Positions 23,698-59,977 of a stretch of DNA of 64,000 nt are shown here, in pieces; position 1 is the stretch's first letter; every line of letters begins with the position of its first letter. Source of the stretch: an uncultured Planctomycetia bacterium (GTDB lineage Bacteria > Omnitrophota > Gorgyraeia > 1-14-0-20-64-10); assembly GCA_964373715.1 (NCBI GenBank), contig CAYJVR010000002.1, positions 182,937-246,936 on the forward strand, read 5' to 3'. A program made the position numbers and the translations under genes. The notes beneath the pieces are model-generated. The model searched no databases. It had not been told where the DNA came from and worked only from the letters and a program-made list of their open reading frames with translations.

Positions 23698-24271
23698 CGA
23701 CAAAGAGCTGGTCCGGCTCGCCCAGCAGGGGGACAGAGGCGCGTTTGATGCCCTCATGTTGAAATACCAGGGGCAGATTATCGGGTTGGCGTACAGGATG
23801 CTCGACAATATGGATGAGGCAGCGGATATCGCGCAGGAGGCTTTTTTCCGGGCTTACCGGGGGTTGAACGGTTTCCGCCGGGAGGCGGCTTTCAGGACCT
23901 GGCTCTACGGGATCACGATCAACCTGGTCCGGCACAAGCGGCGCTGGCACAGCCGGCATAGGACGTCCCAGACTTTTTCGATTACTTTGCCCGAGGAGGA
24001 GGGTTTGGAATCCTCTGCGGCGGAGGAGATCCCGGACCCCGCGCCGGACCCGAGACGGCGGGCGGCCGTCGGGGAGGCTAACGCCAGGGTATCGGAGGCT
24101 CTCGGCAGGTTGCCTGCGCCGCTGAGAACGGTGGTGCTCTTGCGCGACGTGAACGGGTTGCCTTATGAGGAGATTGCCCAGATCTGCAAAGAAAATATCG
24201 GCACCGTGAAATCCCGTCTTCACCGGGGGAGGGGGATGCTGCGGGAGATGCTTGGAGGGATGGAACGATGA
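23675..24271 (+). CDS. ECF-type sigma-70 factor (second copy)
   Basis: LVRLAQQGDRGAFDALMLKYQGQIIGLAYRMLDNMDEAADIAQEAFFRAYRGLNGFRREAAFRTWLYGITINL plus a region-4 HTH (PYEEIAQICKENIGTVKSRLHRGR). Confidence 0.8.
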   Translation: MGPITETDDKELVRLAQQGDRGAFDALMLKYQGQIIGLAYRMLDNMDEAADIAQEAFFRAYRGLNGFRREAAFRTWLYGITINLVRHKRRWHSRHRTSQTFSITLPEEEGLESSAAEEIPDPAPDPRRRAAVGEANARVSEALGRLPAPLRTVVLLRDVNGLPYEEIAQICKENIGTVKSRLHRGRGMLREMLGGMER

Positions 24272-27084: not shown

Positions 27085-27237
27085 TAAGCCGGCCTCCAAC
27101 GCAAGTCCCGGCGGCCCGCGGCGCGTTCAGCGCTGCGGGCTGCGCTGTTTTTTTGAAAGCCTTCTTTTTCATGGAACTTTTCCCTCCTCTCGGGGTCTCA
27201 TTCTCCGGTAGAACCAATCACAAAGGAGGGATTTCCA

Positions 27238-32978: not shown

Positions 32979-33497
32979 TTGTATATGCTTCCATTTGGAG
33001 AAACCGTTTTATTATGGCGTTCTGAACGCCGGATGTCCCAAGAGACGTTGGCTCAGCGCGCCTACATCTCGCGCCCGAATCTTTCCGCGATTGAGAAAGG
33101 GAAGAGGGAGGTTTCATTAAAGACACTCCGCTCTCTTGCAGTTGCTTTGGAAGTGTCGCCCGGCATTTTGGTGGATGGAGTGGGTCCATGGTTTAAAGAC
33201 CCTAAGCCGCTCTCTAGGGAGGTCTTTGAGAGAGTTGCGGAAGCCGTCGTGAATAATGGACCGGTTTCTTCGGACCGTGAGATTCAGCTGGTTGATTTGT
33301 TAAGGTTGATTTCTAGAACTCAGCTTATGATGGCTCGAAACGCTTCCAAAAGCTCTTACCTTGTCGGTAAGAAACGAGTCCAGGCGGCTTGGTTGAAGCT
33401 TTCCTCCGCGTATTCCCCCGAAGACATCCAAAGCTTTATTCGTCGAATAATGGAGCGCAAAAACGAGCAGCCCATTGAGTCCTCAAAAGGTCGATAG
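32979..33497 (+). CDS. XRE-family helix-turn-helix protein (candidate antitoxin/regulator) with a C-terminal extension
   Basis: MSQETLAQRAYISRPNLSAIEKGKREVSLKTLRSLAVALEVSPGIL is a Cro/C1-type HTH. The gene sits in a low-GC (about 47%) islet behind an AT-rich promoter region and overlaps the downstream gene by 23 nt. Confidence 0.7.
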   Translation: MYMLPFGETVLLWRSERRMSQETLAQRAYISRPNLSAIEKGKREVSLKTLRSLAVALEVSPGILVDGVGPWFKDPKPLSREVFERVAEAVVNNGPVSSDREIQLVDLLRLISRTQLMMARNASKSSYLVGKKRVQAAWLKLSSAYSPEDIQSFIRRIMERKNEQPIESSKGR

Positions 33498-34095
33498 GTT
33501 TTTCAGGGTATTGGAAAAACATATCCATGAACCGGTCAGGATTATTTTGACGGGCGCTGCAGCGGGAGCTTTGATGGGGCATGTTCGGCCCAGTTTGGAT
33601 GTCGATTTCGCCATTCAACCGGTTCGCGGTGATTCGAAGAGATGGACCCATATTGAGGAAGCCATCCAGCGCACCCGGCAACTGACGGGAATATCGGCAC
33701 AGTATGCCCAGGATATCGATCGGTGGGGGGCTATTTCATTGATGGATTATCAAAGGCATACTCGTCCTTATCGTAAATTCGGGAAAATCGAAGTTCGGCT
33801 TTTAGATCCTCTTTATTGGTCTATCGGGAAAATCACTCGTTATCTGGAACCGGACATTCAAGACTTAATAGCTGTTTTTAAAAATCAAAACACCCCTATT
33901 GATCTTGTTGCGAAAATATGGGGTAAGGCTTTAAAAAGCAGCCCTCCTTCCGATGCTTGTTTTAGATTTAGGCAGCATGTGGAGAACTTCCTTAAAATAT
34001 ACGGAACTCGGATATGGGGTAAGCGGTTTGATTTTGACGCAGCGATGGAGAAATTCAGAAAAGCAGCGGGGATTGTGAGGAAACCCACGGCGTAG
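33475..34095 (+). CDS. Minimal nucleotidyltransferase of the AbiEii/AbiGii-like toxin type
   Basis: ILTGAAAGALMGHVRPSLDVDFAI fits the Pol-beta-superfamily hG[GS]x9-13DhD motif. It also resembles the AbiEii N-terminus (KGGTAL...R.S.DIDF). 206 aa. Translationally coupled to the upstream HTH gene. Confidence 0.55.
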   Translation: MSPQKVDRFFRVLEKHIHEPVRIILTGAAAGALMGHVRPSLDVDFAIQPVRGDSKRWTHIEEAIQRTRQLTGISAQYAQDIDRWGAISLMDYQRHTRPYRKFGKIEVRLLDPLYWSIGKITRYLEPDIQDLIAVFKNQNTPIDLVAKIWGKALKSSPPSDACFRFRQHVENFLKIYGTRIWGKRFDFDAAMEKFRKAAGIVRKPTA

Positions 34096-34098
34096 GGT

Positions 34099-34488
34099 TT
34101 ACTTCTTGCCGGTGAGCATTTGGTGGACGGTGTCCAACAACTCATCCATCCGTCCGGGCTTCTCGAAGTAGCGGTCCGATTTTTGCTCGAATGTCGGTAT
34201 CTCTCCCACGATGTCCGGTTTGGCGGTCAACAGCATCACCGGGATCATCTTGGTGATCGGGTCGTCCCTGAGAGTTTTAAAGACTTGAGTTCCGGGGATG
34301 TCCGGCAGCACGATGTCGAGGATGATAAGCGCGGGCCACTCCGATTTGGCTTTCTGGAGCACCTCGCCTCCGCGGCTGAGCTCGATCACTTCGTAGCCCT
34401 TGGCCCGGAGCATGCGGGACAGACCTATGCGGGCGTCCGCTTCGTCATCCACCACAAGTATCTTCAACTGGGGCGTTCCCATACTCAC
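34099..34488 (-). CDS. Single-domain response regulator receiver
   Basis: KILVVDDEADARIGLSRMLRAKGYEVIEL...ALIILDIVLPDIPGTQVFKTLR...IPVMLLTAKPD receiver signature. Confidence 0.8.
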   Translation of the reverse strand: MSMGTPQLKILVVDDEADARIGLSRMLRAKGYEVIELSRGGEVLQKAKSEWPALIILDIVLPDIPGTQVFKTLRDDPITKMIPVMLLTAKPDIVGEIPTFEQKSDRYFEKPGRMDELLDTVHQMLTGKK

Positions 34489-34526
34489 CTCTCGCGGTTA
34501 AAGTTTCGGATTTTCTCGGCGAATTA

Positions 34527-34610
34527 TGCCGAGGGAGAGAATCGAACTCTCATGAGGTTTCCCCCACGGGTTTTTGAGACCCGCGCGTCTGCCAGTTTCG
34601 CCACCTCGGC
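34527..34610 (-). tRNA. tRNA-Leu (anticodon CAA), type II with a long variable arm, no encoded CCA
   Basis: The minus strand reads GCCGAGGTGGCGAAACTGGCAGACGCGCGGGTCTCAAAAACCCGTGGGGGAAACCTCATGAGAGTTCGATTCTCTCCCTCGGCA. The acceptor GCCGAGG/CCTCGGC pairs. The anticodon stem is CGGGT/ACCCG with loop CTCAAAA. The T-arm is GAGAG-TTCGATT-CTCTC. Confidence 0.8.
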
Positions 34611-34659
34611 GAGTTGGATTTCCAAAGAACCGGCTGTCAGACCGGATTATGAGAAAAAG

Positions 34660-34680
34660 TGGTGGAGCTGAGGGGGATCG
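34660..34680 (-). repeat. 21-bp direct duplicate of the tRNA-Ala 3' end (T-loop to CCA). It has att-site character.
   Basis: tggtggagctgagggggatcg occurs at 34660..34680 and again at 34781..34801 (the real tRNA 3' end). The flanks diverge at once, and the 120 bp between the copies do not fold into a tRNA. Confidence 0.5.
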
Positions 34681-37542: not shown

Positions 37543-40500
37543 ATGTTAAAGAAGAAAGCCTCGAGCAGAGCTATTTTTTTTGCCCGCTTATTGAGCTCTT
37601 TTTTGATCGTGGAGCTGGCGGTAGGGGGAACCCCTGCCCATGCTCTGCGTCCGATCAACGCTCCTGAATCGGGCACTGCCTTAGATCTTCAGGGAGCTCT
37701 CCGTACAGGCCTCCCGGATCTCTCTCCTTTGAACGCCGGCCTCGAAGAGGTCCCTCCCGGTTGGTATTCTCAAGCTGTTTTCTACAGCATGGAGATGGAC
37801 CGGTTTGTTGATGGGTTGACGCCGGATGCTCTCACCCGGGATGAGATGGAGGTGGTCAGGGGTTTCCTCGAGAACCGGGAGACTGCTCTGCTGGAGGGGG
37901 TCAGCCAGATCATGAGCGACAAGAACTCGGCGATCCACTTTGTCCCGGAAATGACCGAGTCGGAGATTCTCCGGGAGTACCAGAACGACCCGGACCGCCG
38001 CCAGCAGACGCCGTACTACTGGGGTACGGCGCGTGTTCCGTTCGTTGACCTGAAAAAGATGGTCGGAACCTTCAACCTGCCGAAGGATTTCCCAGACCAG
38101 TTCAAGGACCTCGTGTATAGGGCGCTCCGCCGCCGTCATCCTCTGGGAAAGTCGCCTCTCTACGGCGGAGTTCGCGGAGGGGCTCTCGGCGCCCGCATCG
38201 TGATGATGCACCAGGCCCCTGACCAGTTTGCGCTCAGCGTGCGGGAGGCGATTGACGAGGCCCGGGACCGGATCAAAGAGCTTTATCCGGAGGTTTTTGT
38301 GGGAAACATGAGTGTCCAAGGCCAGGCCGAAGTGCCGCGTTCGCAACTGTTCGACCAGATCATCGCCAAGCTCCGCTTTTACTCTTCCCATGTGTCAATC
38401 ACTCTGCCTGACCCTCCGGAATCCCCATCGATCAGCCTCGCATTCGACGGGATGATGCGTGTGCCGCTCAAAGATGTTCCGCGGACGCTTGAACGGGGTG
38501 AGGTTGAGGCGATTGACGAGGGCAGGAAGCCCCCTTATCTGAATCCAGACCAGCTTGCCCTCCTCGCTGAGGACCCCGCCACAGCGGCCGAATTAGTCCA
38601 ACAGTATCTCGACTGGGACCGGTACTTCAGCGAGCGCCGCGGCAAGTACTCGACCGCCGCTCGGTACTGGCTCCGGCAGGTGGCGCTGCTCCGGGCCAGG
38701 GGCGAGGAGAACGACCGGGCCCGCGCCATAGCGAGTTTCTTCATCGAGAGACTGATGTCCGACCGGTGGGCCAGTTTGAACGCGCGGCTTCCACTGTCAG
38801 AGGTGATCTACTTCCCGGATATTGATCCGGAGTTGACCCAGGCTATCCGCCAGGTGATGCCGCCCGAGATGCTCCCGGCCCCGGAGCACCCGGAACGGAT
38901 CCTGGTCATTGACGACGCGTTCATCAGCGTATTGATCGAGGGGTTCCGCAGCATGATAAAGAAGAGTCCGACCCGGTCGCAGCAGCAGATGCAGTCCATG
39001 CGGATGCTCGGCCGGATTTTCAAGATCATGCTCGAAGGGTACAGGGGGACCGTCCCCTTGGCGAACTACCACACCGCGCGCAATCCGCGGCTCCGCCACG
39101 CGATCGACCGGGTGTACAACCTGGACCGGCCGGAGGGGACCTCCTCGAAGCGGATGATGGACGCCTGGGAACATCTGGACCAGCGCCGGCTGCTGCTGGA
39201 CCGGGCCGTCCGTGAGAAGAGCGATCAGGTCCAACCGCTCCGGGACCAGATGCAGGTTGCGCTTGATCAGTTCAAGGAGGAGTACCGGCGTTACCGGCTC
39301 GACGCCTACGAAGCGATGATGCTCGCGCCCCGGGATCCCCGCGTGGAGGAGGTTGTGAAGCTGTACTGGGTTGACCAGTACGCCGAAGCCGACCGGTCGG
39401 GACATATCGCCTCCCTCCGGGGACATCTCACCGGCGAGAGGGACCGTCTGATCGCCCGCCGGGACCAGATTGTTGCAGGCACTCCCGCAACGGTCGAGCT
39501 CGATTCCGCTATCGGCCGCTTGAACCGGCTCATCGGGCTCTTGAATCCCGGCGCGTTTATCGTCAAGCGCCCGGAAGGGGACGAGATCGCGCCCGTGATG
39601 CGGCACTCGAACGGTCTGTTCGTGATGGGGTTAACCGAGCGGAACAAGGGATGGTCGCACGACCAGACTTATCCGCCCGGCCCGACCGACGAGATCTATT
39701 CGGCGATTACGCTAAGGTCTCTTGACGACGCGGTGAAAAAATATTCCGAATCGGGCGGCGACACCCGCCGGGCAATGGTCGGCGCGCTGGCGAACACGAA
39801 CGCGGTTATCCTGCAGGTGGAGCCGCGCGACTTCCCGACTTACGAGAAACATCTGGAAAACGGACTGGTTGTCCGTATGGAGTCGTACGCCCCCCCCGGG
39901 TTGCCCGCCCCGACCAGCTTGCGCAGCCCCCGCAGCCGGAACTGGTACCGCTGGCTGGCAGACCGGGACGCCAAGGGCAGCCCATGGCAGGAGGACCCGG
40001 CCCGGACCGGCCCCGCCGAGAGGCACCCCGACCTCCGGCGTTTCCGGGACAAGTTGTCGGTTGCCGCGATCTACAACGAGGTTTTGCTGTCGCCCGATCT
40101 TTTGCCGGAGATGTTCGCCCAGCTTGAGTTGGCGACCGACATCCAGAAGAAACGGCCTGACCTGGTGTCCCGGGTCGTAGAGATCCATGAGATTGTCAAG
40201 GAGCCCGAGAGCGTGTGGGATCTCCCGCCCGACGCGTTGGCCGGACTCGAAGAACTTGAGGCCGGTTTTCAGAGGATGGAGACGGCCGGCGACGTGTCCG
40301 GGCTGGAAGAGACGCCCCTTCAACAGAAGATTTTTCTCAGGCTGCGCACTCAGAGCCGGAGGATTTCCGAGCGCCTTCAAGGCCACCCTTTTCCTATAAA
40401 AATTCTGTTGGGCCCCGGTCAGATGCCGGTTTACCGGGCGGAGAATGACGGTCTGCCTATGAACCGGATGACATTGTGGCTGTTCAGCCGCGGCGTCGAG

Positions 40501-43500
40501 AACCTGATCCTGCGCGAGGCGGGCCCGGAGTTTCAGCAGGAATTTTCCGATGCGGTGCGGGAGTTCGGCGCCAACCAGCCTTTTACGATGTACGACGGTC
40601 AGACGGTCCTGACGATGGCCAGCACCGATGAGGTCAGGCAGTTGGTTGAGGGAGACGCGCGGCTTAACCCTCAGCAAAGAGCGAGAGTCATTTTACTCAA
40701 AGAGTTTATCGACCGCAGCCGGGGGTTGAACCCGGACGCCGTTGTTGAAGCCGCCGTTAACTTTCTGTTTGATGATAATTACCGAAACCTGTTGGAGAAC
40801 GTCAATCACGTCCGGACCAACCCGGGCAAGAATCCCCGGTTGGCCGGCGGCAAACCGCCGGTCCGGTCGGCCGGCGAGATTGATTCGCAGAGAGGGGTCG
40901 AGATCTGGCTGGTCAAAGAGGGCAACGATACGATGGTTGCCCAGGTCTCCGTTTTCTTGAAGGACGGCACTCGCTCCTTGTTTGTGGTCAACGTTGCAAA
41001 GGATTTAACCGACGCGGGAAGAATCTTGACGGAAGTTGTTCAGGTGCTCGACGCGAACTACGAGCGGCATCCGGGCTACAGCATGGAGACCTTCCAGTTC
41101 GGCGAAGGGACGGCTTTCGTGGGAACCAGAGAACAGAAGATCCCGCTTTTCACCGGAGAATGGCTTGAGGGATACGAAGAGTCCCATCTGTTTGCGGTCC
41201 CCGAAGATTCCGGCCAGCCGGCCCGCTTCCATGTCTGGTGGGGCCAGAACTCCCGTTTGAGCGAGCCTCTTTCAGAGACCGAATCGGACAGCGTTTGGTC
41301 GGCGTTGATAGAAGCCCAAACCGTTCTCTCCTGGATCGAAGGTCGCGGCAAAAATAGGAGGGCCATATTGAGCCAGCCCAACGTGAATGCCGGGGATATG
41401 CCGGTGATCAAGCCGGGAAACGGCTGGAAGGGGGTCCTCATCTGGGACCGCCGGATGGTACCGCCCGAGAAATTCGACCTTGGCCAGATGGTTTTGGAAG
41501 GGCTTCTTAAACAGGTCGTCGATTCGCGCGGCGGCCAGATTCGCAGGATTTGGTGGGGAAAGCCGGAGAAGGCAGTGGAGGCGATCCGCCGCGGTTTCGT
41601 GGAAGCGGCCCGCTACCAGGCGGAGAAAGCGGGGAAGGACCAAAGACGGGCCATGCGGCAGGCTCAGGCGAGCTTGAACCGGATTTTCGAGAGGGTTTAT
41701 GAGGGGACCTTACAGGCATGGGCCAACGATCCCAGCCTCTATCCTGGGTGGAGCGATTTCACGGCTTCGGAAAAACAGCGTTTTTCGGAAATCGTTGCGC
41801 AGGCGCGCCATGTGGTCGGCGTTGTTATCGGAGAAGAGGAGCCTCAATCGCTGGAAGAATCGGGTCTTGAGGAAGGGTACGCAGCGAAGTCGGACCGGCT
41901 GGAGCGGTTGATTCCTGAGGTTGAACAGCTCATGGCGGCCGAAACCAAAAGCGGCCTCCTTCGCAGGACCATCGGGGAGATCCGGAGCGATTCGTATTTT
42001 GTCGAGGGGCAGATCGCTTACATTCCCGTGCGCCAGGGAGCGCTCTACGTGATCGGCGATAACCACGGCGATTACAAGAGCCTGCGCAAGGCGATCCAGC
42101 GGAGTGGCTATGATCCGGAGGATCCGGACCGGCCCCATCTTGTTTTTGTCGGCGATTACGGGGATGTCGGGAAGAAAAGCTTGGATGTGGTTCTTCAGGT
42201 GTTGGAAATGAAGCTGGCCGATCCGGAGCGGATCACCCTGCTGGCGGGCAATCACGACCGGGACCGGCCCACCCGCGGGTCGGAAGACGTCCAAAAGTGG
42301 ATCGCCGCCGGCAACGAACCGTCCCGCTGGTTTTTCTGGGAGTTGGAGGAGAAGATTGGCCCTCAGCGGGGTTCCGCCCTGTTTGACCGGCTTACCCGGT
42401 TGGCCAGAAGTTTGCCGATGCTGGTTGTGACGGCCAACGGGATCGCCGTAACGCACGCAAGTCCCCCCTCCGCGCTTGATCCTTTGTACAAGCCGGAAGA
42501 GGGGCTCCTGGGGATCGCGGGCAATCAGAAACTGCTGGACCGGTTTGCCTTCAACCTGATCCGATATCCGGATGCTGAAGCGGATGAGCAGAACACCACC
42601 TTTCACCGGATGCATCCCCGTTTGGAGATGGGACATTGGATCGGCCGGCAGGGGATCGACACTTTCCTGAACAGCATCGGGGCGACGGTCTTGGTTCGGG
42701 GGCACAACCGGACCGGGCCCGTTCTGCCGACCCACCAGGGGAAGGTGCTGACCGTCATCACCACCGACTGGCGTTCCAACGACGGCGGCTATCCGAAGCA
42801 GGACAGAGGGGTTGCCCGGATCGCCAAGTTTGACTTGGCCGCCTCCTATGCTCAGATACCGTCCGAAGTCATCCTCTCCGTTTGGGACGCCGCAGGCCGG
42901 CTGCCGCGGCAGTCGCCGTCGGGTCTCGAGGAGGTGTCGGAGCGGGTACCGTTTGAGTTAGGACAGCTTGCCGAACGGAGCCGGTCGGATCTTCCGTTGA
43001 TTGTTGATCTGCAGACCCTTCCGCCGGGACTCCTGCGCGATTTCATCGAATGGCTTAACCAGATCGAGGCGGATGATGTGGTGGTGATCGGCGGGATGCT
43101 GCGCGATACGCTTCTCGGATATGAGCCGGGCGACGTTGATTTTGCCGTCAAGGTAGAGTTGCCCGCTGACCTACAGCAGTCTTGGCAGGAGGATGTGCGG
43201 CGGCTGACGCCGATTGCTTTGAATGAGAAGTACAAGCTCCAATATCGAGCCGACAAGGTGCTTTACCAAGTCGCAAAGAAAATGCAGATCTCTCCTAGCC
43301 GGCTACTCCGGCTGAGAGAACGGTTTCAGGAGCAGGGTTTGGAGTTCAGCTTCAGCGCGGTGGTTGCGGGAAATTTCTTGATTGATTTCGGACGGCAGGC
43401 AACCTTTACAGTTAATCAGATTGCGATGGACCGGAAGGGCCGTGTTTATCTGCCTGAATCGCGGAGAGGGTTCGAGGATCTTTTCAACCGGTTGATCGTT

Positions 43501-45306
43501 GTGCCGCGCAGTTCCGGCAGCGGGCCAATTGCGGGAATCGGATTAAAAACCGCTCTCCAAGGGGTTCGGTACCATCATCAATATGGAATGACAATCGATC
43601 CGGCCACTTATCAGCTTTTCCGACGGGTTGCGGAGCGAGGACAGTCTGAGCCACCGTCCCGTATCCGGAGGATTTGGTGGACGGTCAAGGGAACGATCCG
43701 CGAACTCGGCAGGGCTGTCGCTCATCCGTCTCTTGCGGGGGCCCATCTGCGTTCCGCTCGCCGGTTGGCCGCTCGTATGCTTTGGGATTCTTGGATGCAC
43801 GATGCCCCCGGCCGATGGTTGGAAAAAGTGCTCGAATCGGTTCCCGATCCGGTACCGGTGTTGCGGGAATTGGCCGAGCTGGGTTTGCTGGACGTATTGC
43901 GGATTTCCGGTGCGGATGTGGACGGGATCATTGACCGTCGAATGGGCGGTCCGCCGGCCTCAGCCGGGTTGGAGGAGTTGACCGTGGAAAAGGTGGATCA
44001 GTGGATTCATCTCCTCGAACAGGGGTGGCCGGATCAGCGATGGATCACTTTAGGGAATGCCGGGTGGGCTCTCTTCCTGCGTTCCGCCCCGCCGGAGGCG
44101 ATGGTCCTGCGGGCCGACCGGTTGGTTTCTGCGGTCGTCTCCAATCTGGCCCCGCCCAAGCAATCCTGGGGGTCTTTTCTCTTCGCAGAACAGAGGGATG
44201 TCCGGGAGGACGCGCAGAAGTTGGTGAATACCTTTCTGCGAGTTCCCCGGTTTCGCAAGGCGCTTGCTGCCGACCCGGATCGGGTGGTTTCCCATACGCT
44301 CCGTAATTTTGTTTTACGCAAAGGTTTTCTGGGATTCAACGCCGCGGGGTCGATTCGTCTCATGGTTGGTTTGGAGCCTTTTCAGGAATCGTTGGCCGGC
44401 CGGATCCCCTCCTTGGTTGACCTTCTAGAGGGGGCCGATCCGGTCATCGCTTTAAGGGCCCGTGAGATCCTGATCGATTTTTTGGAACAACCCGGTTTCC
44501 GCCCGTTTCTGGCGGATGAGGTCTCGACGCTGGTGTGGTTCCTCCGGAAAGGGAATCTCTCGGCCGGCGTTCATTCGGGAGAAATCCTGAAGGCCATGGC
44601 TTCCATCGAGACTTTCCGCCCGGCGCTGGCTCGCGAGGCCCCTTCGCTCAGGGAGCTGACGGAAAGCGAAGGCGAGTACCTTTCGCCACGCGCTTACGCG
44701 AGGGATATCCTGGAACTGCTGGGCCCGACGGGGATCTGGTTTGGGAACGGCATCCAGGTGCTCGATCGACGGCCGGTTTTGCCGAGCGGCAGCATCCGTT
44801 TTGGATTCTCCGCCGGTTTGGAAGAGTTGGGGTCCCTCCGCCAGCGGATGCCGGAGTGGCTGCGGGGGATTATCTCCCCGGACCGTCTGCCGGACCTGGT
44901 CCGCGGGGTGCATGAGATCTCCAATGCCTCTGACAAGGTGGCCGTGCTGATCCATCCGGGGCTCTTTCCGGCCGATGCCGACCCGTTTGATCTCGAGGTG
45001 AACCTGGTCGGGCTTTCGGGCAATGTGCGGGCTTCTTTGGGCCTGCGTGAAGGGACTGACCTGAGAATTGGTCTTTTGACCGAAGAGAACTTGAAAACCT
45101 ACAACGGGTACCGGATCGTCCAGGTGTTGAGGGATCCGGCCGCCGCGCACCGGGAAGCGCTGCCTCTGGAGGCGGTCCCTCTCGTGGTGGCCGAGGCTCT
45201 CTCTGTGCGGGGAAACACCTTCTGGGTGGATGTGACCCCCTATCTCGCGGTGAGTGAGTTGACGATGCCGGAGGTTCTCTCCACGCTCACCGATCTCTTC
45301 GCGTGA
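37543..45306 (+). CDS. Giant (2587 aa) multi-domain protein: N-terminal hydrophobic leader, about 1450 aa of unassigned sequence, a calcineurin-like (PPP-family) metallophosphoesterase domain, a poly(A)-polymerase/CCA-type nucleotidyltransferase head domain, and about 600 aa of unassigned C-terminus
   Basis: Uninterrupted 7.76-kb ORF with an AT-rich promoter region upstream and a terminator hairpin downstream. PPP motifs at about 42040..42260: VIGDNHGD (GDxHG), VFVGDYGDVG (GDxxDRG-like) and LLAGNHD (GNHE-like). NTase head at about 43084..43150: VVIGGMLRDTLLGYEPGDVDFAV, which matches the GGxxRDxxLGxxxxDxD pattern of PcnB and CCA-adding enzymes. Six [S/A]GLEE motifs lie at predicted domain boundaries. 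Confidence 0.7.
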   Translation: MLKKKASSRAIFFARLLSSFLIVELAVGGTPAHALRPINAPESGTALDLQGALRTGLPDLSPLNAGLEEVPPGWYSQAVFYSMEMDRFVDGLTPDALTRDEMEVVRGFLENRETALLEGVSQIMSDKNSAIHFVPEMTESEILREYQNDPDRRQQTPYYWGTARVPFVDLKKMVGTFNLPKDFPDQFKDLVYRALRRRHPLGKSPLYGGVRGGALGARIVMMHQAPDQFALSVREAIDEARDRIKELYPEVFVGNMSVQGQAEVPRSQLFDQIIAKLRFYSSHVSITLPDPPESPSISLAFDGMMRVPLKDVPRTLERGEVEAIDEGRKPPYLNPDQLALLAEDPATAAELVQQYLDWDRYFSERRGKYSTAARYWLRQVALLRARGEENDRARAIASFFIERLMSDRWASLNARLPLSEVIYFPDIDPELTQAIRQVMPPEMLPAPEHPERILVIDDAFISVLIEGFRSMIKKSPTRSQQQMQSMRMLGRIFKIMLEGYRGTVPLANYHTARNPRLRHAIDRVYNLDRPEGTSSKRMMDAWEHLDQRRLLLDRAVREKSDQVQPLRDQMQVALDQFKEEYRRYRLDAYEAMMLAPRDPRVEEVVKLYWVDQYAEADRSGHIASLRGHLTGERDRLIARRDQIVAGTPATVELDSAIGRLNRLIGLLNPGAFIVKRPEGDEIAPVMRHSNGLFVMGLTERNKGWSHDQTYPPGPTDEIYSAITLRSLDDAVKKYSESGGDTRRAMVGALANTNAVILQVEPRDFPTYEKHLENGLVVRMESYAPPGLPAPTSLRSPRSRNWYRWLADRDAKGSPWQEDPARTGPAERHPDLRRFRDKLSVAAIYNEVLLSPDLLPEMFAQLELATDIQKKRPDLVSRVVEIHEIVKEPESVWDLPPDALAGLEELEAGFQRMETAGDVSGLEETPLQQKIFLRLRTQSRRISERLQGHPFPIKILLGPGQMPVYRAENDGLPMNRMTLWLFSRGVENLILREAGPEFQQEFSDAVREFGANQPFTMYDGQTVLTMASTDEVRQLVEGDARLNPQQRARVILLKEFIDRSRGLNPDAVVEAAVNFLFDDNYRNLLENVNHVRTNPGKNPRLAGGKPPVRSAGEIDSQRGVEIWLVKEGNDTMVAQVSVFLKDGTRSLFVVNVAKDLTDAGRILTEVVQVLDANYERHPGYSMETFQFGEGTAFVGTREQKIPLFTGEWLEGYEESHLFAVPEDSGQPARFHVWWGQNSRLSEPLSETESDSVWSALIEAQTVLSWIEGRGKNRRAILSQPNVNAGDMPVIKPGNGWKGVLIWDRRMVPPEKFDLGQMVLEGLLKQVVDSRGGQIRRIWWGKPEKAVEAIRRGFVEAARYQAEKAGKDQRRAMRQAQASLNRIFERVYEGTLQAWANDPSLYPGWSDFTASEKQRFSEIVAQARHVVGVVIGEEEPQSLEESGLEEGYAAKSDRLERLIPEVEQLMAAETKSGLLRRTIGEIRSDSYFVEGQIAYIPVRQGALYVIGDNHGDYKSLRKAIQRSGYDPEDPDRPHLVFVGDYGDVGKKSLDVVLQVLEMKLADPERITLLAGNHDRDRPTRGSEDVQKWIAAGNEPSRWFFWELEEKIGPQRGSALFDRLTRLARSLPMLVVTANGIAVTHASPPSALDPLYKPEEGLLGIAGNQKLLDRFAFNLIRYPDAEADEQNTTFHRMHPRLEMGHWIGRQGIDTFLNSIGATVLVRGHNRTGPVLPTHQGKVLTVITTDWRSNDGGYPKQDRGVARIAKFDLAASYAQIPSEVILSVWDAAGRLPRQSPSGLEEVSERVPFELGQLAERSRSDLPLIVDLQTLPPGLLRDFIEWLNQIEADDVVVIGGMLRDTLLGYEPGDVDFAVKVELPADLQQSWQEDVRRLTPIALNEKYKLQYRADKVLYQVAKKMQISPSRLLRLRERFQEQGLEFSFSAVVAGNFLIDFGRQATFTVNQIAMDRKGRVYLPESRRGFEDLFNRLIVVPRSSGSGPIAGIGLKTALQGVRYHHQYGMTIDPATYQLFRRVAERGQSEPPSRIRRIWWTVKGTIRELGRAVAHPSLAGAHLRSARRLAARMLWDSWMHDAPGRWLEKVLESVPDPVPVLRELAELGLLDVLRISGADVDGIIDRRMGGPPASAGLEELTVEKVDQWIHLLEQGWPDQRWITLGNAGWALFLRSAPPEAMVLRADRLVSAVVSNLAPPKQSWGSFLFAEQRDVREDAQKLVNTFLRVPRFRKALAADPDRVVSHTLRNFVLRKGFLGFNAAGSIRLMVGLEPFQESLAGRIPSLVDLLEGADPVIALRAREILIDFLEQPGFRPFLADEVSTLVWFLRKGNLSAGVHSGEILKAMASIETFRPALAREAPSLRELTESEGEYLSPRAYARDILELLGPTGIWFGNGIQVLDRRPVLPSGSIRFGFSAGLEELGSLRQRMPEWLRGIISPDRLPDLVRGVHEISNASDKVAVLIHPGLFPADADPFDLEVNLVGLSGNVRASLGLREGTDLRIGLLTEENLKTYNGYRIVQVLRDPAAAHREALPLEAVPLVVAEALSVRGNTFWVDVTPYLAVSELTMPEVLSTLTDLFA

Positions 45307-54033: not shown

Positions 54034-54106
54034 TAGATATATAATTTAAATATTTTCTGACATCCCACCTCCCTACCGGGTATACTCTTTACAAGGTAAA
54101 CCCGGC

Positions 54107-57100
54107 ATGAAACCTACAAAAACAGCTCTCCAAACTGCTCTCGGGCTCTTTCTCTGCCTCGCTCTTGCTCTGCCTGGTTCCTCCTACGCTTTGCGAATCG
54201 AACAGGTCGGAGATAGCTCTTTTGCGCTCAACGGATTGGAGCAGAGACTGAAGCAAGATGCCTTACTGCCCGCCTCCGGGCTAGAAGAGAAATGGAGCTC
54301 TTTCCCCTGGAGGTCACTCGAGGGGAAAACGCTCCGCCAAAAACTTCTTCGGCTGAGACGATTCGCGGATCTTACACAGCGCCGTTTTGCCGAAGAGGCG
54401 GGCATCAGTGTGCATTATTACTTTGCTCTCGAGAAAGGGACGAAGATTCCGTCCCTGCGTATGCGCCGGAGAATAGCCGATTTCTATGTGGAGCGGCAGG
54501 GCGCTCCCCGTTGGGCAATCTATGAACTATTTGAGATCCGGGACCCGGAAGAGATCCTGAAGGGGTTGAAAGGGAAACCGGTTCATGAAGTTGTTCGAGG
54601 GCTGCGTGAATCGGTGGGGGTTTTTAAAGAAGGGGACACGGGTATTGCAAAGATAGTGGGAATGGACAGGCTTGAATACAGGCTTCTCGAGCGGGGTCAA
54701 GTCGCCCCGACAACAAGGCTGCTCCGCAAGCTGATCACCTACTATTCGGAAGAGCACGATTTTCCACCCGATGCTCTCGCAAGGGTTCTTGGGATCAAGT
54801 CCGCGGAGGAAATGCTCGATGGGATAGAAGGGGAAGAGCTTCCCAAGATGATCCGTACACTGCGGGATTTTGCAGGGCTGACTCAAAAAGAGCTGGCAGA
54901 GGCCATCAATGTTTCGGAAGCCACTTATCGGGTCTGGGAGTGGGATGGGGCAGGGCCCCCCTCCTTGGCGAATCGCCGGGCGCTTGCCGGTTACTACGAA
55001 ACCGCGCACGGTTTTCCTCCGGTCCGCATAAGAAGGATTTTTAGAGTGGAGATTCCTGCGGCGGAGGTGATGACGCGGCTGGCCGAGGTTTCGAGCTTTT
55101 CCGACGCGCTGCGGCTTCTTCGGACCTCGCAAGGTTTTCTGCCGGCCCGATTGGCTGAAATCCTCGGGGTTTCAAGGAATACCTACTACAGTTGGGAAGA
55201 GAATAGAGTTATTCCCGGACCTGGCGATCAGGAGAAGATCGCCGCTTATTTCAGCGAAAAATGGGGGTTCCCTTACCGTCATCTCTTGAGTCATTTGACA
55301 GGATTGGCGCATGCCCAGCAACCGATACCGCCAGGAGCCCGCGATGTTCCGATGCTGAACATCACAGTGAACGATCAGCGCTTTCGTGTTCCCGCCGCCG
55401 GTCTCATCGGTTCCCAACCGCTTAATTTCAGGCAACTCTTCAACTTGCTGGTGCGGGAAGATCTGCTCGATTACGAAGATTCTCAAGAGGTCGAGAGCAG
55501 GCGTGTGATTATTGAGCGAGAAATGGAGACCGACGAAGGGACCCAGCCCGTCGTCAAGCTGCTTGGATCGCCGGTGACCACGGATGAGTTGAACCGGTTA
55601 CACGTATTTTCAAAGGTCGAGGATAACGATCAGATTGTTATTTCACCCATCGTGATCAGGAGGGGATGGAAACCGCGACAAACCGAGAATGTCGGGAGCC
55701 TCTTAAACCCAACGCGGGTTGTCCGGCACCCGGATGAGGTGGATATTTGGCTTCTATCAGCGGAGGAAAACGAGGATCCGGTACCGGATGATACCGAAGA
55801 GACAGGTACCCAGCCGCCGTCCGACGCTGGGTTGGAGGAGGAAAAGCAGGAGGCGAGCTGGGCACTTCCGGTGCGTCAGGTTTGGGTTCCACAGTTGAAT
55901 CGACATCTCTACGCGACGGATGAGATTGTCGATGCAGATAACCGCGGGGCTTCCCTTTTTCTAGACTTGATCGCGTCTAATCCCGGAGTGTTTCGAGAAA
56001 AAAGAGTCTTGGAAATCGGGACTGGATCGGGCGTTATCGCGATCGCTTTAGCGCGGGCCGGTGCAATCGTGGTTTCGATCGACATCTTGCCCGAAGCATT
56101 GGAATTAGCGCAGGCCAATCTCGTCGGAGAAACCTCAGAGGTTCAAGGGCGGATAACGCTTAGCCAAAGCAACGTCTATGCCCAGATACGGAAGATTACC
56201 GACAAGCTAGACTTTGATATGGTGGTAACCAACAATCCAATTCAAAATAAAGAGCCCTTGCAAGAGCAGAAAATCACTTATGCCCGCTGGGCGGGGAAAG
56301 GTTTCCAATTTGTTCGAGATGTAGTTGAAGGTTTGCCGGCCGTCTTAAAACCACTAGGGCAAAATCGCGAGCTTTACATTTTAACCTTTGAGGAGTCGGC
56401 GCGCGATGATGCCGGTGATTATCTGGTTCCGTCCCGCCTTCAAGACCTCCTGCTTCCCCATTGGACGCTACAACATACGGGATTGGTCTCAGCCCCGGAG
56501 GGGAGACCGCCAATATCCATTCAGCATGTCTTTGATACAAGAACCCAGGTGGCCACTCTTGAAGTAGGCGGATCGTATCTTCGGGGCGGGGTTTTCGGCC
56601 TTTCCGGAAACCTCATCTATCCAATGCAAACCATCTTTTTGCCCAACGTTCTCCCATACCGCCCCGTATCGAATCGTGAGAATCAAGAACCTCTCCTCCA
56701 ACTGATGGTGAATTCGCTTCAGCAGCTCATGCGACAAGCAGGTGGTGTGGGCGGCATTTCGTTGAGTATGGCGACTGACGTTGATCCATCAGGACGCTTG
56801 ATTCCCAGCGGGGCGGAAAACGTTCCGTTCCCAGAATCCTTCGAGCTTGCCGATCTCCTTGAAAAACGGCTTGGCCCGGATGTCCGCGTTTTGCTTTCCA
56901 ATGACATCGTTTCAGCCGCAACCGCCGAAGGGCTGTCAGGTGCTGGGAAAGGGCTTGATTTTTTTCTTTTCGCCACGGTATCCACGGGACATACCACCGC
57001 TGCAAAGTTTCCGGATGGAAAAATTTCGGATCTGGGAACCTGGAACTATAAAGTGGATCTTAACGACAATGTTCGCGGCGTCAACGCAGCTGGCGTACCG

Positions 57101-58807
57101 GTTACCCTGCTGGCCGCCGGCAATGGGATTGCAGATCTGGCTCGTCAAAACACAGGGCGGCCTGGCTATCCGGAGATTTTGGAAATGGCGGGTGGAGATC
57201 CAAACGCTATTACTGGAAAAACAGTCGGGGAAGCTTTTCTGAAGGGAAATCCTCTCGCAGCAGAGCTTGTTCACCGTTCAACTGCCTTGATTGGGAAGAC
57301 GTTGATGCTGGCTTTACAAAACCTTCGGCAAGAGGGTCGCTTGCAGTCGATCGACCAGTGGAATCAACCTGCAATTCCTATTATTCTCAGTGGTGGCTTT
57401 GCCGCCGGAATAGGCCCTCGTTATGCAGCGGAGGTACAACGGACTATCGATGATCTGGGAGGTCAGACACTCTACGCAAAACCGATCCGAGTCATCCCTC
57501 CTGAATTGGACGCCGATTTGCGCGGACCTGCCGGAGCAGCCATCCATTTTGCTCAACAAAATCTCGCTGGATTGAGAGAAGAAGCTCTCGCTCAAGCAAT
57601 GTCAGAGGAAACGGTACCGGAGAAGCCGGTACGGGGTACCGAAGAGACAGGTACCCAGCCGCTGCCCGACGCAGGGTTGGAGGAGTTCCAGAAGCGGTTG
57701 GTTTTAAGAGAGGAAATAAGGGGGGCCTTTTCTAAGGCGGATGCCTACCACGACGTGTGGAAGCCTTTCGAACAAAAAATCTGGGAACCGTTTAGAAAAA
57801 AGCAGTTCATTACAAACACCTACTATTTCTTTGCGGATGATAAGTTGGGCCTCCCGAAATATCAAGTGCCTTTCAAGGAAGCCTTCTTAAACCTGGCCCT
57901 CCACGGCAATGGAGGATGGGTAGAAATCTACCGGCTTCATCGGGAAGGTCAGGATTCCGACGGGATCGAGTTTGTGCTGAAGGATCACGGCCCGGGCATA
58001 GAAAATCCAAACGTGGTTTTAGAAGCGAGTATTCAAGCGCAAAATGACAAAGCTCAGAAGGGATTGGGTTTTGCGCTTATCTCGATGTTTCCCGATCGAA
58101 TAATCTTTCATTCGAAAGGTGTGCAGTGGGAAAAACGAGAGTTTCCAGATCGGAGATTCCGGCCTGCCGGGCCTTCGGACGTCGCGCAGGGAGACGGAAG
58201 CCGCTGGCATCTGATTTACGAGAAGCTGCCGTATGCGATGAGCCCGCAACAGGCTCCTTGGGGCGCCTGGAAAGCGCCGTTTTCCGGGGAGAGCCCTACC
58301 GGCCAAGAGGGGGATAAGACCGCCGGCATGGAGGAGATACCGTTGGAGAAAGCGATCGATCTCCTCGAGGAGGCGATGCCACAAGGGCCGGGGATTTTGG
58401 TGATTGAGGCCGGGGTGGTCAGCCGGCGGATGGGGCTGGCGGAGTTTGTCGCGCGCGTTCCACGGAGTCTGGGAGACCGGATCGTTCTCTTCGGGCCGGA
58501 GAGCGCGGAGGCCAGGGAGATCGCCGTCCGCAACGGCATCGCCGTGGTGGACAGCGACAAACTGAGCGATCTGATTCTTCAGCTTATGGTTCTTGGAGAT
58601 GAAGCCGACCGGGTTGGCTATCTCGGAGATCCGGAAACCGCCGCGGTGCTTTCCGCCAGGCTGCCCTCTTCCATGGAGGTGACGCCGCTTGATCCTGAGA
58701 CGGCGCTTGACCGGCTCCTGCTTTATCTCGGATTCCCCCAAGGGGTGCTGGAGACGATCGACGCGATGGGGATGGAAGAGCTGTTCGCCCAGGCCCGGGC
58801 GGCGTAA
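54107..58807 (+). CDS. Giant (1566 aa) mosaic protein: signal peptide, four tandem Xre-type HTH modules, a class I SAM methyltransferase, a ROK/BadF-like sugar-kinase fold, an anti-sigma-type GHKL (HATPase_c) kinase domain, and a C-terminal domain
   Basis: Signal peptide MKPTKTALQTALGLFLCLALALPGSSYA|LR. The four HTH repeats are LRRFADLTQRRFAEEAGISVHYYFALEKG, ...DRLEYRLLERGQ, LRDFAGLTQKELAEAINVSEATYRVWEWDG and GFLPARLAEILGVSRNTYYSWEENR, each ending in an aromatic-GFPP/HDFPP motif. The MTase motifs are VLEIGTGSGVIAIALA and VVTNNPI. ROK-like: VRVLLSNDIVSAATAEGLSGAGKGLDFFLFATVSTG. GHKL: NLALHGNGG, LKDHGPGI and KGLGFALIS. There are two copies of a 45-bp linker repeat. Confidence 0.7.
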   Translation: MKPTKTALQTALGLFLCLALALPGSSYALRIEQVGDSSFALNGLEQRLKQDALLPASGLEEKWSSFPWRSLEGKTLRQKLLRLRRFADLTQRRFAEEAGISVHYYFALEKGTKIPSLRMRRRIADFYVERQGAPRWAIYELFEIRDPEEILKGLKGKPVHEVVRGLRESVGVFKEGDTGIAKIVGMDRLEYRLLERGQVAPTTRLLRKLITYYSEEHDFPPDALARVLGIKSAEEMLDGIEGEELPKMIRTLRDFAGLTQKELAEAINVSEATYRVWEWDGAGPPSLANRRALAGYYETAHGFPPVRIRRIFRVEIPAAEVMTRLAEVSSFSDALRLLRTSQGFLPARLAEILGVSRNTYYSWEENRVIPGPGDQEKIAAYFSEKWGFPYRHLLSHLTGLAHAQQPIPPGARDVPMLNITVNDQRFRVPAAGLIGSQPLNFRQLFNLLVREDLLDYEDSQEVESRRVIIEREMETDEGTQPVVKLLGSPVTTDELNRLHVFSKVEDNDQIVISPIVIRRGWKPRQTENVGSLLNPTRVVRHPDEVDIWLLSAEENEDPVPDDTEETGTQPPSDAGLEEEKQEASWALPVRQVWVPQLNRHLYATDEIVDADNRGASLFLDLIASNPGVFREKRVLEIGTGSGVIAIALARAGAIVVSIDILPEALELAQANLVGETSEVQGRITLSQSNVYAQIRKITDKLDFDMVVTNNPIQNKEPLQEQKITYARWAGKGFQFVRDVVEGLPAVLKPLGQNRELYILTFEESARDDAGDYLVPSRLQDLLLPHWTLQHTGLVSAPEGRPPISIQHVFDTRTQVATLEVGGSYLRGGVFGLSGNLIYPMQTIFLPNVLPYRPVSNRENQEPLLQLMVNSLQQLMRQAGGVGGISLSMATDVDPSGRLIPSGAENVPFPESFELADLLEKRLGPDVRVLLSNDIVSAATAEGLSGAGKGLDFFLFATVSTGHTTAAKFPDGKISDLGTWNYKVDLNDNVRGVNAAGVPVTLLAAGNGIADLARQNTGRPGYPEILEMAGGDPNAITGKTVGEAFLKGNPLAAELVHRSTALIGKTLMLALQNLRQEGRLQSIDQWNQPAIPIILSGGFAAGIGPRYAAEVQRTIDDLGGQTLYAKPIRVIPPELDADLRGPAGAAIHFAQQNLAGLREEALAQAMSEETVPEKPVRGTEETGTQPLPDAGLEEFQKRLVLREEIRGAFSKADAYHDVWKPFEQKIWEPFRKKQFITNTYYFFADDKLGLPKYQVPFKEAFLNLALHGNGGWVEIYRLHREGQDSDGIEFVLKDHGPGIENPNVVLEASIQAQNDKAQKGLGFALISMFPDRIIFHSKGVQWEKREFPDRRFRPAGPSDVAQGDGSRWHLIYEKLPYAMSPQQAPWGAWKAPFSGESPTGQEGDKTAGMEEIPLEKAIDLLEEAMPQGPGILVIEAGVVSRRMGLAEFVARVPRSLGDRIVLFGPESAEAREIAVRNGIAVVDSDKLSDLILQLMVLGDEADRVGYLGDPETAAVLSARLPSSMEVTPLDPETALDRLLLYLGFPQGVLETIDAMGMEELFAQARAA
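55796..55840 (+). repeat. 45-bp intragenic linker repeat, copy 1 (encodes EETGTQPPSDAGLEE)
   Basis: gaagagacaggtacccagccgccgtccgacgctgggttggaggag. It is 42/45 identical to the copy at 57641..57685. Both are preceded by a KpnI site (ggtacc). Confidence 0.8.
57641..57685 (+). repeat. 45-bp intragenic linker repeat, copy 2 (encodes EETGTQPLPDAGLEE)
   Basis: gaagagacaggtacccagccgctgcccgacgcagggttggaggag. Confidence 0.8.
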
Positions 58808-58860: not shown

Positions 58861-59977
58861 ATGGACGCCGCATTAGGCATTCAATTAGCCACTCTTCGGG
58901 AGAATCTCTCGAAACTGCGGAGGTATCTTTGACCTGGACACCGTCGAGTCCAGGATAAAAACCCTCGAAGCGAACCTCGCCACCCCCGGTTTTTGGGACA
59001 ACCAGACGAAGGCCAACACCACGGTCCAGGAGATGAAGCGGTTGAAGTCGGTGGCGGATCCGTGGGCCGCCGCGTGGGCCGAGGTGGAAACGCTGCAGGA
59101 GTTGGCCTCCCTTGTCGAAGCGTCCGACGCGGCCGGTACCGCCGAATTGAGCCGTTCCGCCGAGGCGCTCGAGAAAAGCGTCGCCGGTTTGGAGAAAAAG
59201 ACCCTCTTTCAGGGGGGAAACGACCCCAATAACGCTATACTCTCGATTGCCGCCGGTGCCGGAGGGACCGAGGCGTGCGATTGGGCCTCGATGCTCTTTA
59301 GGATGTACAGCCGTTGGGCGGAATCGAAAGGGTTCACCGTCGAATCTCTGGACCACCTGGCGGGTGAAGATGCCGGCCTTAAATCGGCGACCGTAATCAT
59401 CAAGGGGGATTACGCGTACGGCCTTCTGCAGGGGGAATCGGGGGTGCACCGGCTGGTCCGGATCTCCCCGTACGATTCCAACAAAAGGAGACATACCTCG
59501 TTCGCCGCGGTCGATGTGGTGCCGGAGATCTCCGAGGATATCCAGGTGGACATCCAGGAGAAGGACCTGCGCGTGGATGTCTACCGCTCGAGCGGGCCCG
59601 GCGGTCAGGGGGTGAACACGACCGATTCGGCGGTCCGGATCACGCACATCCCGACCGGCATTGTGGTGCAGTGCCAGAACGAGCGCTCCCAGCTGAAGAA
59701 TAAAGGCTCTGCGATGAAAGTTCTGCGCGCCAGGCTTTATGAAGCGGAGCGCAAGAGAAGAGAGGATGCGGCGACGAAACAGCACGCCGAGAAACAGAAG
59801 ATCGAATGGGGCAGCCAGATCCGCTCCTACGTGCTGCAGCCTTACCAGATGGTAAAGGACCACAGGACCGACGTGGAAAGCGGCAAGACCGGCGGGATGC
59901 TGGACGGCGATGAGCTGGACCTTTTCCTGGACGCTTATTTGCGCTGGAAGGCGCAGCGGAAGGTGGAGTCGAGATAA
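58861..59977 (+). CDS. prfB: Peptide chain release factor 2 with a programmed +1 ribosomal frameshift
   Basis: Frame 0 (ATG at 58861) reads [23 protein letters not shown] and then hits TGA within the motif ggAGGtatCTTTGAC. That is an SD-like AGG upstream of CUU UGA C, as in E. coli prfB. The +1 frame continues [39 protein letters not shown]... into the 59033 track ORF, which carries the [18 protein letters not shown] and [25 protein letters not shown]2 signatures. Confidence 0.8.

Follow-up and report, generated by a model that had tools for sequence, protein, structure and literature searches.

The open reading frame (ORF) at 54107-58807 on the forward strand of the 64-kb stretch of contig CAYJVR010000002.1 analysed here (the window) encodes a 1566-amino-acid (aa) protein that belongs to a protein format not described before and restricted to the lineage of Candidatus Omnitrophota and close relatives. 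Proteins of this format have a common layout, in which a leader made of a signal peptide ending in A-x-A/L-R (the slash standing for the predicted cleavage site), a spacer and one or two copies of a short junction mark, [AST]-G-[LM]-E-E, is followed by one to several unrelated cargo segments and by a C-terminal, non-catalytic alpha/beta domain (C-domain), the mark recurring at every junction. The best reading, which is given slightly less than an even chance, is that the protein would be an exported multi-cargo precursor, or polyprotein, cut at the marks. An earlier interpretation made from the DNA letters alone (the sequence-only reading) had proposed an exported effector, a polyprotein or a membrane scaffold, and among these options the evidence favours the exported multi-cargo precursor.

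Omnitrophota are widespread bacteria of ultra-small size that have not been cultivated and are believed to live on other microbes or to prey upon them, and we know of no described route by which they deliver proteins to their targets. The motif, the leader and the C-domains are absent from Pfam, NCBIfam, PADLOC, PHROGs and the searchable literature, and are considered new: neither Pfam nor NCBIfam has a model for the leader or for the C-domains of either type, and literature searches on the motif, the accessions, bacterial polyproteins and Omnitrophota sorting signals returned nothing specific. Together, the three elements constitute a searchable signature with which the cargo of this lineage could be catalogued, exact processing sites predicted and the matching protease or secretion machinery sought.

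Family layout and the junction mark

The 1566-aa protein carries the family leader, five marks placed between domains and a C-domain of the family type. Its signal peptide, already proposed by the sequence-only reading, holds on inspection: a basic N-terminal region (K2 and K5) precedes a 13-residue hydrophobic core (aa 10-22, ALGLFLCLALAL) and the sequence S-Y-A/L-R, which fits the -3/-1 rule, and the same pattern is found in the full-length relatives. The core is the sole transmembrane (TM)-like segment of the protein besides the GxGxG strand of its methyltransferase (MTase) module. In 23 full-length members (cited below by handles such as P0002) the residue at -1 is Ala and that at -3 is A, S, V or L, except for a G in P0017, whose N-terminus was not counted as a signal peptide; L-R comes next, with the exceptions of L-H in P0059 and M-R in P0063. 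A mark lies 4-31 residues past A-x-A/L-R and is often followed, after a short conserved helix, by a second one. A hidden Markov model (HMM) of the leader, built from 18 members with the 1566-aa protein, its orthologue and its 2587-aa neighbour in the window left out, was run against 5,207 six-frame ORFs and matched only the 1566-aa protein (E=1.4e-12), the neighbour (5.8e-12) and three genes of locus L089, without any false hit.

The sequence G-[LM]-E-E occurs five times in the 1566-aa protein (aa 58, 575, 1190, 1407 and 1555), nearly always preceded by a small residue, against 0.118 occurrences expected (P=1.7e-7), and seven times in the neighbour, against 0.15 expected (P=2.5e-10); none of the other six-frame ORFs of the window contains it. 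This recurring mark had escaped the sequence-only reading. Control six-frame ORFs from 78 loci of other bacteria (900,210 aa) contain it 63 times, that is, 0.07 times per 1000 aa, with two or more copies in only one ORF, as compared to 2.4 marks per 1000 aa in family proteins. The family logo reads P(-3)-x-[A>S>T>G](-1)-G-[L>>M]-E-E-[R/A/K], and the 10 residues N-terminal of the marks form a short, Pro-rich linker with few hydrophobic residues. In the 1566-aa protein the marks stand after the leader, between the helix-turn-helix (HTH) block and the MTase, between the ROK-like and GHKL modules, before the C-domain and 12 residues from the end. Several of them read L-P-x-[AS]-G, and only ~23% of family marks have Pro at the position matching LPXTG; signal peptidase I-like, prepilin-peptidase-like and sortase-like readings of the mark were compared with the logo and none fits well. 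The Leu and Glu codons of the marks differ synonymously between copies, which argues that selection acts on the peptide and not on the DNA, and the flanks of most copies are unrelated. A Shine-Dalgarno or other DNA-level role of the GGAGGAG found in marks was rejected, given that other copies use CTCGAAGAA and similar codons.

Two types of C-domain were distinguished, both of them alpha/beta in AlphaFold2 (AF2) models. The A-type is present in six proteins, namely the 1566-aa protein, P0002 and P0064-P0067, the other five also carrying the same leader or marks, and all six domains end in the conserved tail G[AMI]EELFA[RQ]ARAA. The smallest of these proteins, P0067 (212 aa), consists of leader, marks and C-domain only. 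A profile of the B-type, which is the one carried by the neighbour, retrieved 61 proteins of up to 6251 aa from 1.84 billion representatives, with the domain always at the extreme C-terminus. Homology between the two types was rejected, both by hhalign of the C-terminal domains of the 1566-aa protein and the neighbour (probability of 1%) and by an HMM of 27 B-type domains. The B-type domain is unlikely to be a protease because it has no invariant polar residue except one Arg and no structural relative of it was found.

The cargo recognised by Pfam across the family includes metallophosphatase, GHKL ATPases, a pyridoxal phosphate enzyme, ribulose-phosphate epimerase and TPR, to which reading by eye or precomputed hits add WD40, GNAT, lytic transglycosylase-like and helicase-like sequences. 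The 1566-aa protein contains three cargo segments: (i) four Xre-type HTH units and a domain of unrecognised fold, (ii) an S-adenosylmethionine (SAM)-dependent MTase with a ROK-like ASKHA module and (iii) a GHKL ATPase. In the neighbour Pfam identifies Metallophos and PolyA_pol-head, and a whole-protein search of 5.8 billion proteins returned one distant relative of it, P0004, the parts in common being the leader and the ~150-aa C-terminal domain. The idea, put forward by the sequence-only reading, of a lineage-specific modular family uniting the two window proteins is borne out by their common leader and junction motif, shuffled cargo and C-terminal domains. Giant size, which had been taken as the family trait, is not one, as members span from the cargo-less P0067 to more than 6000 aa. 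Within the family, P0036 begins with RRxFL (Tat-like) rather than with a Sec-type leader and contains a lytic transglycosylase-like sequence read by eye; some family members may use Tat.

All recognisable cargo domains of the 1566-aa protein are of cytoplasmic type, needing SAM, ATP or DNA, as would be expected of a membrane-anchored signalling protein with an uncleaved N-terminal anchor, whose HTH, MTase, kinase-like and GHKL modules would be active in the cytoplasm of the producer. Such an arrangement is rather improbable, since the positive charges before the hydrophobic core and the canonical A-x-A site after it predict an N-in/C-out orientation and cleavage, and the leader is kept as one unit in front of unrelated cargo. 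Moreover, the lytic transglycosylase-like cargo of relatives (by eye) and the Tat-like start of P0036 fit an extracytoplasmic destination.

Exchange of cargo segments at the marks

The sole orthologue of the 1566-aa protein among 5.8 billion proteins is P0002, a 1048-aa protein encoded by the metagenome-assembled genome (MAG) GCA_023248015.1 in the same slot after Ogt; a protein-alignment search of GTDB species genomes for orthologues gave no relative. The two proteins are 82% identical over aa 1-577 and 85% identical over aa 1406-1566, with an unrelated middle of ~315 aa, and the DNA homology of their genes ends at the GLEE codons on the left and restarts at those on the right. In the window gene, a 49-nucleotide (nt) direct repeat encoding TEETGTQP..DAGLEE exactly brackets the MTase+ROK segment (Table 1). 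In addition, when family proteins are divided at the marks, segments from different proteins can be aligned over their whole length: the metallophosphatase segment of the neighbour (1441-1793) with P0030 1028-1382 and P0042 1419-1787, and its segment 920-1440 with P0018 509-1008. These alignments show that the marks coincide with module boundaries and recombination breakpoints.

Comparative genomics, proposed by the sequence-only reading as a check, thus yielded both this orthologue and family members in syntenic slots. Four genomes have a family member in the slot between Ogt and PrfB, with a different cargo in each (Table 1). Because a conserved slot holds different cargo in the four genomes, the family loci are taken as chromosomal and vertically inherited, with contents that are rapidly exchanged. 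The slot member of L006, the closest relative by SecA, has a divergent leader missed by the leader HMM, with a possible lipobox-like LLTC, and three marks; it ends soon after two of them, without a C-terminal domain. The G+C content at third codon positions (GC3) shows a sharp step inside the window gene, from 0.51-0.59 in the cargo (54107-58324) to 0.756 in the C-domain (58325-58807), the surrounding housekeeping genes having 0.75-0.80. The low GC3 of the cargo is consistent with its import from elsewhere. The modules of the neighbour also vary in GC3 (0.62-0.80).

In the model proposed, cargo segments would be swapped between genes and genomes by recombination, and the surviving products would be those retaining the mark at each junction. 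The coincidence of breakpoints and marks, and the bracketing of the MTase+ROK cassette by a 49-nt repeat, could alternatively mean that the mark is a mere structural linker or helix cap spreading with the cassettes, a by-product, without any role in recognition, of domain shuffling by homologous recombination between linker repeats; P-x-[AST]-G-L-E-E is indeed compatible with a helix N-terminus. This explanation is considered quite improbable. The codons differ among mark copies and the flanks are mostly unrelated, hence DNA homology cannot explain the spread of the mark. Furthermore, G-[LM]-E-E is kept between proteins that are 30-50% identical or otherwise unrelated, and it is at least 30-fold rarer in control proteins, which also have helices and linkers.

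Predicted export and processing

In the multi-cargo precursor reading, the 1566-aa protein would leave the cytoplasm through Sec. A dedicated endopeptidase would recognise the marks, cut off the leader and free the individual cargo segments and the C-domain, and the C-domain would serve as a handle for sorting or assembly. For the cargo, which is of cytoplasm type, the site of action would then lie beyond the producer's own cytoplasm, plausibly in or on another cell. The parts that we infer from sequence are export through Sec and the existence of a dedicated factor recognising the mark. Processing is favoured because one and the same mark stands at all three kinds of junction (leader to cargo, cargo to cargo and cargo to C-domain), because the two leader marks flank a short helix in the manner of a removable propeptide, and because mosaic proteins of Omnitrophota are already suspected of being cut. 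If the marks are indeed cleavage sites, the family would represent a bacterial counterpart of viral polyprotein expression, and its junctions would be natural modular joints for protein engineering.

Several observations weigh against this reading. HTH, SAM-dependent and ATP-dependent modules are odd as periplasmic or extracellular cargo; GLEE starts helix 1 in the confident model of a B-type C-domain, where it may be a helix cap instead of an exposed site; and some C-domains have GLEE both in a loop within the domain and in the tail, where cutting would split the domain. Some GLEE-delimited segments are multi-domain and some very long members have few marks, while the Pro-rich signal of the upstream linker is modest. 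No peptidase gene adjoins either family gene in the window, and export, cleavage product and protease are all inferred from sequence. Part of these data would be accommodated if the mark were a signal for sorting, docking or modification that stays uncleaved and is bound by a chaperone, by a component of secretion or by a modifying enzyme, on a chain exported in one piece, for instance as a surface or periplasmic scaffold anchored by the C-domain. Leader and C-terminal domains conserved family-wide suggest a dedicated trafficking pathway, the B-type C-domain, in which GLEE begins a helix, lacks invariant catalytic residues and resembles a binding module, and marks inside and at the tail of C-domains stand where cutting seems counter-productive. 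Still, a docking signal need not match every module boundary or recombination breakpoint, and the pair of leader marks around a short conserved helix resembles a removable propeptide. The uncleaved signal is accordingly judged unlikely, though an alternative to be taken seriously.

The proposed precursor resembles in kind the lineage-specific sorting and processing systems and the multi-effector toxins, being a member of none. The MARTX toxins of Vibrio and relatives are long secreted chains with several unrelated effector modules, cleaved in the linkers between modules, and their module sets differ between close strains through recombination. The GLEE family likewise has long polypeptides of unrelated modules and recombining module sets. 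MARTX toxins, however, have no Sec signal peptide, depend on type 1 secretion, and carry glycine-rich repeats and an internal cysteine protease domain cutting after Leu, whereas the GLEE family has a fixed five-residue junction motif and a separate C-terminal alpha/beta domain. MARTX membership was rejected, with a Sec leader present and no match to RTX-like repeats or to the cysteine protease domain in the 1566-aa protein (Pfam and NCBIfam) or in the neighbour (Pfam).

The prohead protease gp21 of phage T4 cuts after L/I-x-E. As in viral polyproteins and prohead-protease substrates, the units of the GLEE family are translated as one chain with a short recurring motif, and L-E-E fits L-x-E, a likeness that is a lead only. 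Unlike viral polyproteins, the 1566-aa protein has a Sec-type leader and is encoded by a chromosomal gene between housekeeping genes, with no capsid or protease context. LPXTG/sortase, PEP-CTERM/exosortase and GlyGly-CTERM/rhombosortase are also lineage-restricted short peptides found in many paralogues with diverse cargo, with a dedicated enzyme implied. In those systems the signal is single and C-terminal, followed by a TM helix and a basic tail, whereas the GLEE mark recurs within the chain and has soluble sequence after it.

Cargo of type IX secretion (T9SS) ends in an Ig-like beta-sandwich of ~70-100 aa, a domain confined to Bacteroidota, in contrast to the alpha/beta C-domains described here, and is not known to have a repeated internal motif; a T9SS assignment was rejected on the AF2 models and for lack of any match to the corresponding C-terminal domain models of Pfam and NCBIfam. 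Among such cargo, the gingipains of Porphyromonas are polyproteins whose processing yields several domains (PMC11285876, PMC10202324). Closer in lineage are the giant proteins of Omnitrophota called 'Archaeovorins', which exceed 30,000 aa, have many TM segments and C39 or S8 peptidase domains, and are suspected of post-translational cleavage into several products at points that are unknown, with no cleavage motif reported (bioRxiv 10.1101/2023.11.21.568195). Both groups belong to the same phylum-level lineage and have signal peptides, multi-domain mosaics and a nearby conserved type II secretion system (T2SS)/pilus locus, also found in the window; the GLEE family differs in its size of 0.2-6 kaa, its single N-terminal hydrophobic segment and its defined junction motif.

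A broader extension, possible but on balance unlikely, is that Omnitrophota-like bacteria follow a polyprotein strategy on a proteome scale, in which an [AST]-G-L-E-E-specific endopeptidase would release exported modules (lytic enzymes, kinases, methyltransferases, phosphatases and DNA-binding modules) sorted via the novel C-domains. It would amount to a new secretion and processing system bringing a recombining arsenal to the cells of prey or hosts. If true, such a strategy would supply the missing cleavage rule for the giant proteins of the phylum.

Gene model, modules and genomic setting

The ORF has an ATG start, 1566 open codons without internal stops and a stop codon at its end, and the identical protein is encoded in three independent assemblies, namely the NCBI MAG GCA_947085675.1 (contig CAMTXI010000002.1) and the Logan single-run assemblies ERR4904390 and ERR4904391. 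For this reason it is no assembly chimera: the gene is real and intact. The odd mixture of domains, and a cargo GC3 below that of neighbouring genes, could raise the suspicion that mis-assembly or a sequencing error has fused several genes. This is hardly conceivable in view of the three identical assemblies, of an orthologue that is one ORF with the same ends, and of junctions that hold a conserved in-frame peptide and not stop/start signals. No assembly or sequencing error splitting the ORF, which the sequence-only reading had listed as a refuting outcome, was seen in these same data.

The NCBI gene model is shorter (1465 aa), starting at a GTG at codon 102, inside HTH unit 1, and thereby loses the leader. 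The upstream ATG is the true start because aa 1-101 are conserved, a promoter match lies upstream (Table 1) and the GTG of NCBI falls within the first HTH. The N-terminus is kept in P0002, with 27 synonymous versus 19 non-synonymous codon differences over aa 1-101, and AAGG is found 12 nt 5' of the ATG. In the neighbour, the NCBI model (P0003, 2567 aa) begins 20 codons late, with a truncated signal peptide. Start calls that cut the leaders off both family genes in the window have hidden the family, and the annotation needs correcting.

Table 1. Positions in the window of the gene, its parts and its paralogue, and contents of the Ogt-PrfB slot.
Feature	Position	Strand	Basis or remark
Complete coding sequence, 1566 aa + stop	54107..58807	+	ORF analysis; identical in three assemblies
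Sigma-70-like promoter match, CTGACA-18 nt-TATACT, 10/12, 20 nt 5' of ATG	54057..54086	+	Consensus match only
Predicted Sec-type signal peptide, aa 1-28, MKPTKTALQTALGLFLCLALALPGSSYA/LR	54107..54190	+	Inspection; kept in P0002; belongs to family leader
Leader spacer: L-R, degenerate first mark GLEQ (aa 43-46), first full mark S-GLEE (aa 57-61)	54191..54289	+	Layout as in P0031, P0043, P0062
Four tandem ~85-aa Xre/Cro-C1 HTH units, aa 70-412	54314..55342	+	Pfam HTH_3, HTH_31, HTH_19; alignment of units
Domain without recognised fold, aa 413-550	55343..55756	+	82% conserved in P0002
49-nt direct repeat, copy 1, encoding TEETGTQPPSDAGLEE; contains mark 2	55792..55840	+	Repeat search; orthologue homology ends here
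Mark 2 in repeat copy 1, GLEE codons	55829-55840	+	Sequence
Class I SAM methyltransferase module, ~aa 600-790	55904..56476	+	Pfam MTS, Methyltransf_31; PDB matches PRMT3, HemK
ROK-like ASKHA module, ~aa 810-1170	56534..57616	+	Pfam ROK 38.7 bits; PDB glucokinase 3vov
49-nt direct repeat, copy 2, 46/49 identical (94%), 1845 nt = 615 codons downstream, in frame; contains mark 3	57637..57685	+	Repeat search
Mark 3 in repeat copy 2, GLEE codons	57674-57685	+	Sequence
GHKL ATPase core, HATPase_c_2-like, aa 1255-1336, within segment aa 1190-1406	57869..58114	+	Pfam, NCBIfam; N, G1, G2 boxes seen
Mark 4, A-GMEE, aa 1406-1410; orthologue homology resumes	58325..58336	+	Stretch of AF2 model with pLDDT (predicted local distance difference test) <50
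A-type C-terminal domain, five-stranded alpha/beta/alpha sandwich	58337..58768	+	AF2 model
Mark 5, M-GMEE, aa 1554-1558, 8-residue tail LFAQARAA, stop codon	58769..58807	+	Sequence
Paralogue, 2587 aa: same kind of leader, 7 marks, metallophosphatase + nucleotidyltransferase cargo, B-type C-domain	37543..45306	+	Pfam, motif, profile
Ogt-PrfB slot, window			HTH + MTase/ROK + GHKL
Ogt-PrfB slot, P0002			HTH + unknown segment
Ogt-PrfB slot, L006	6809-8143 of L006		445-aa HTH-like protein, no C-domain
Ogt-PrfB slot, L089			1327-aa ARMT1-like + WD40 member

The domain inventory of the sequence-only reading is upheld by Pfam and NCBIfam scans, the GHKL module being marginally under the cut-off, and the PDB sequence search agrees with Pfam for the MTase (PRMT3, HemK) and the ROK-like module (glucokinase). 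Of the four tandem HTH modules announced, three are detected by Pfam HTH_3 (PF01381; 77.1 bits versus a cut-off of 23), and the fourth, which is divergent, becomes visible only on aligning the four repeats with each other. The domain that follows, at aa 413-550, had no match in the Pfam scan or the PDB sequence search; a beta-grasp-like fold is a guess. The MTase module belongs to class I (Pfam MTS, 37.5 bits versus a cut-off of 23, aa 613-717) and has the GxGxG motif (EIGTGSG). The Rossmann methyltransferase claim therefore stands as to fold, but the NPPY motif of the best-matching HemK-type families is missing, motif IV reading NNPI where NPPY is expected. With no (N/D)PPY motif and a best NCBIfam HemK-family score of 52.5 bits, far under the cut-off of 115.5, a HemK/PrmC-type or N6-adenine methyltransferase was rejected.

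The kinase-fold module is probably best called a ROK-like ASKHA module. Pfam ROK (PF00480) matches aa 817-962 with 38.7 bits, against a cut-off of 22.9, over profile positions 3-134 of 294, that is, the N-terminal half only. Inspection found the EVGGS and ND motifs but not, in aa 960-1100, the ROK Cys/Zn motif CxCGxxGC, so the proposed ROK-like fold is retained without that cysteine/zinc motif. As to the anti-sigma-type GHKL kinase, HATPase_c_2 (PF13581) scores 26.2 bits, slightly under the cut-off of 27.4, the boxes are visible and the NCBIfam anti-sigma F factor model spIIAB (TIGR01925) matches the segment with E=1.5e-4; the GHKL assignment lies just below threshold, so that partner-switching is not established. 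A STAS-like identity of the C-terminal domain was rejected, its AF2 model being a generic alpha/beta/alpha sandwich.

SecA is 66-67% identical to that of two MAGs labelled 'Planctomycetia' by ENA and ~55% identical to that of many Candidatus Omnitrophota MAGs. P0042, one of the family members, is annotated as a protein of a Candidatus Omnitrophota bacterium, and synteny between its locus L089 (GCA_016177405.1) and the window extends for more than 25 kb, in the order YkuD, AccA, CobO, LeuRS, family gene, ComEC, BamD, LptE, HolA, MurJ, UvrC, Ogt and family gene. L089 has three family genes in 28 kb (565-1782, 10001-18265 and 26439-28265), one of them with a single GNAT cargo, and the window has two in 64 kb; genome-wide, family genes could number dozens. 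Membership in MADS or another catalogued defence system was rejected, as PADLOC gave only partial matches, to the SAM-binding core of mad2 (profile positions 280-433 of 492) and to HTH models, and the neighbours are housekeeping genes. A phage origin was likewise rejected, as PHROGs matched only the HTH units and, in one weak hit, the MTase core.

Other features of the window were recorded. A type IV pilus/T2SS-like cluster (3215-10006 and 19107-20924 on the forward strand, 21139-22581 on the reverse) encodes a ParA-like ATPase, PilM, PilN, a secretin, T2SSF, T2SSE and a PilZ-T2SSE fusion, and is similar to the conserved secretion locus that has been described close to the giant genes of Omnitrophota. 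Two pairs of extracytoplasmic function (ECF) sigma and zf-HC2 anti-sigma factors lie at 12897-19047 (+) and 23675-25326 (+), and the 1513-aa Laminin_G_3 protein that comes after the first ECF sigma pair is devoid of GLEE marks. Just 5' of LeuRS lie the gene of a stand-alone Xre-HTH protein and, after it, two ORFs without Pfam match (32979-34671, +). Finally, prfB, encoding RF2 (58861-59977, +), has a classical programmed +1 frameshift, with the ATG at 58861, CTT TGA C at 58927-58933 and GGAGG just upstream; the ORF lists and the NCBI gene model give the downstream frame only.

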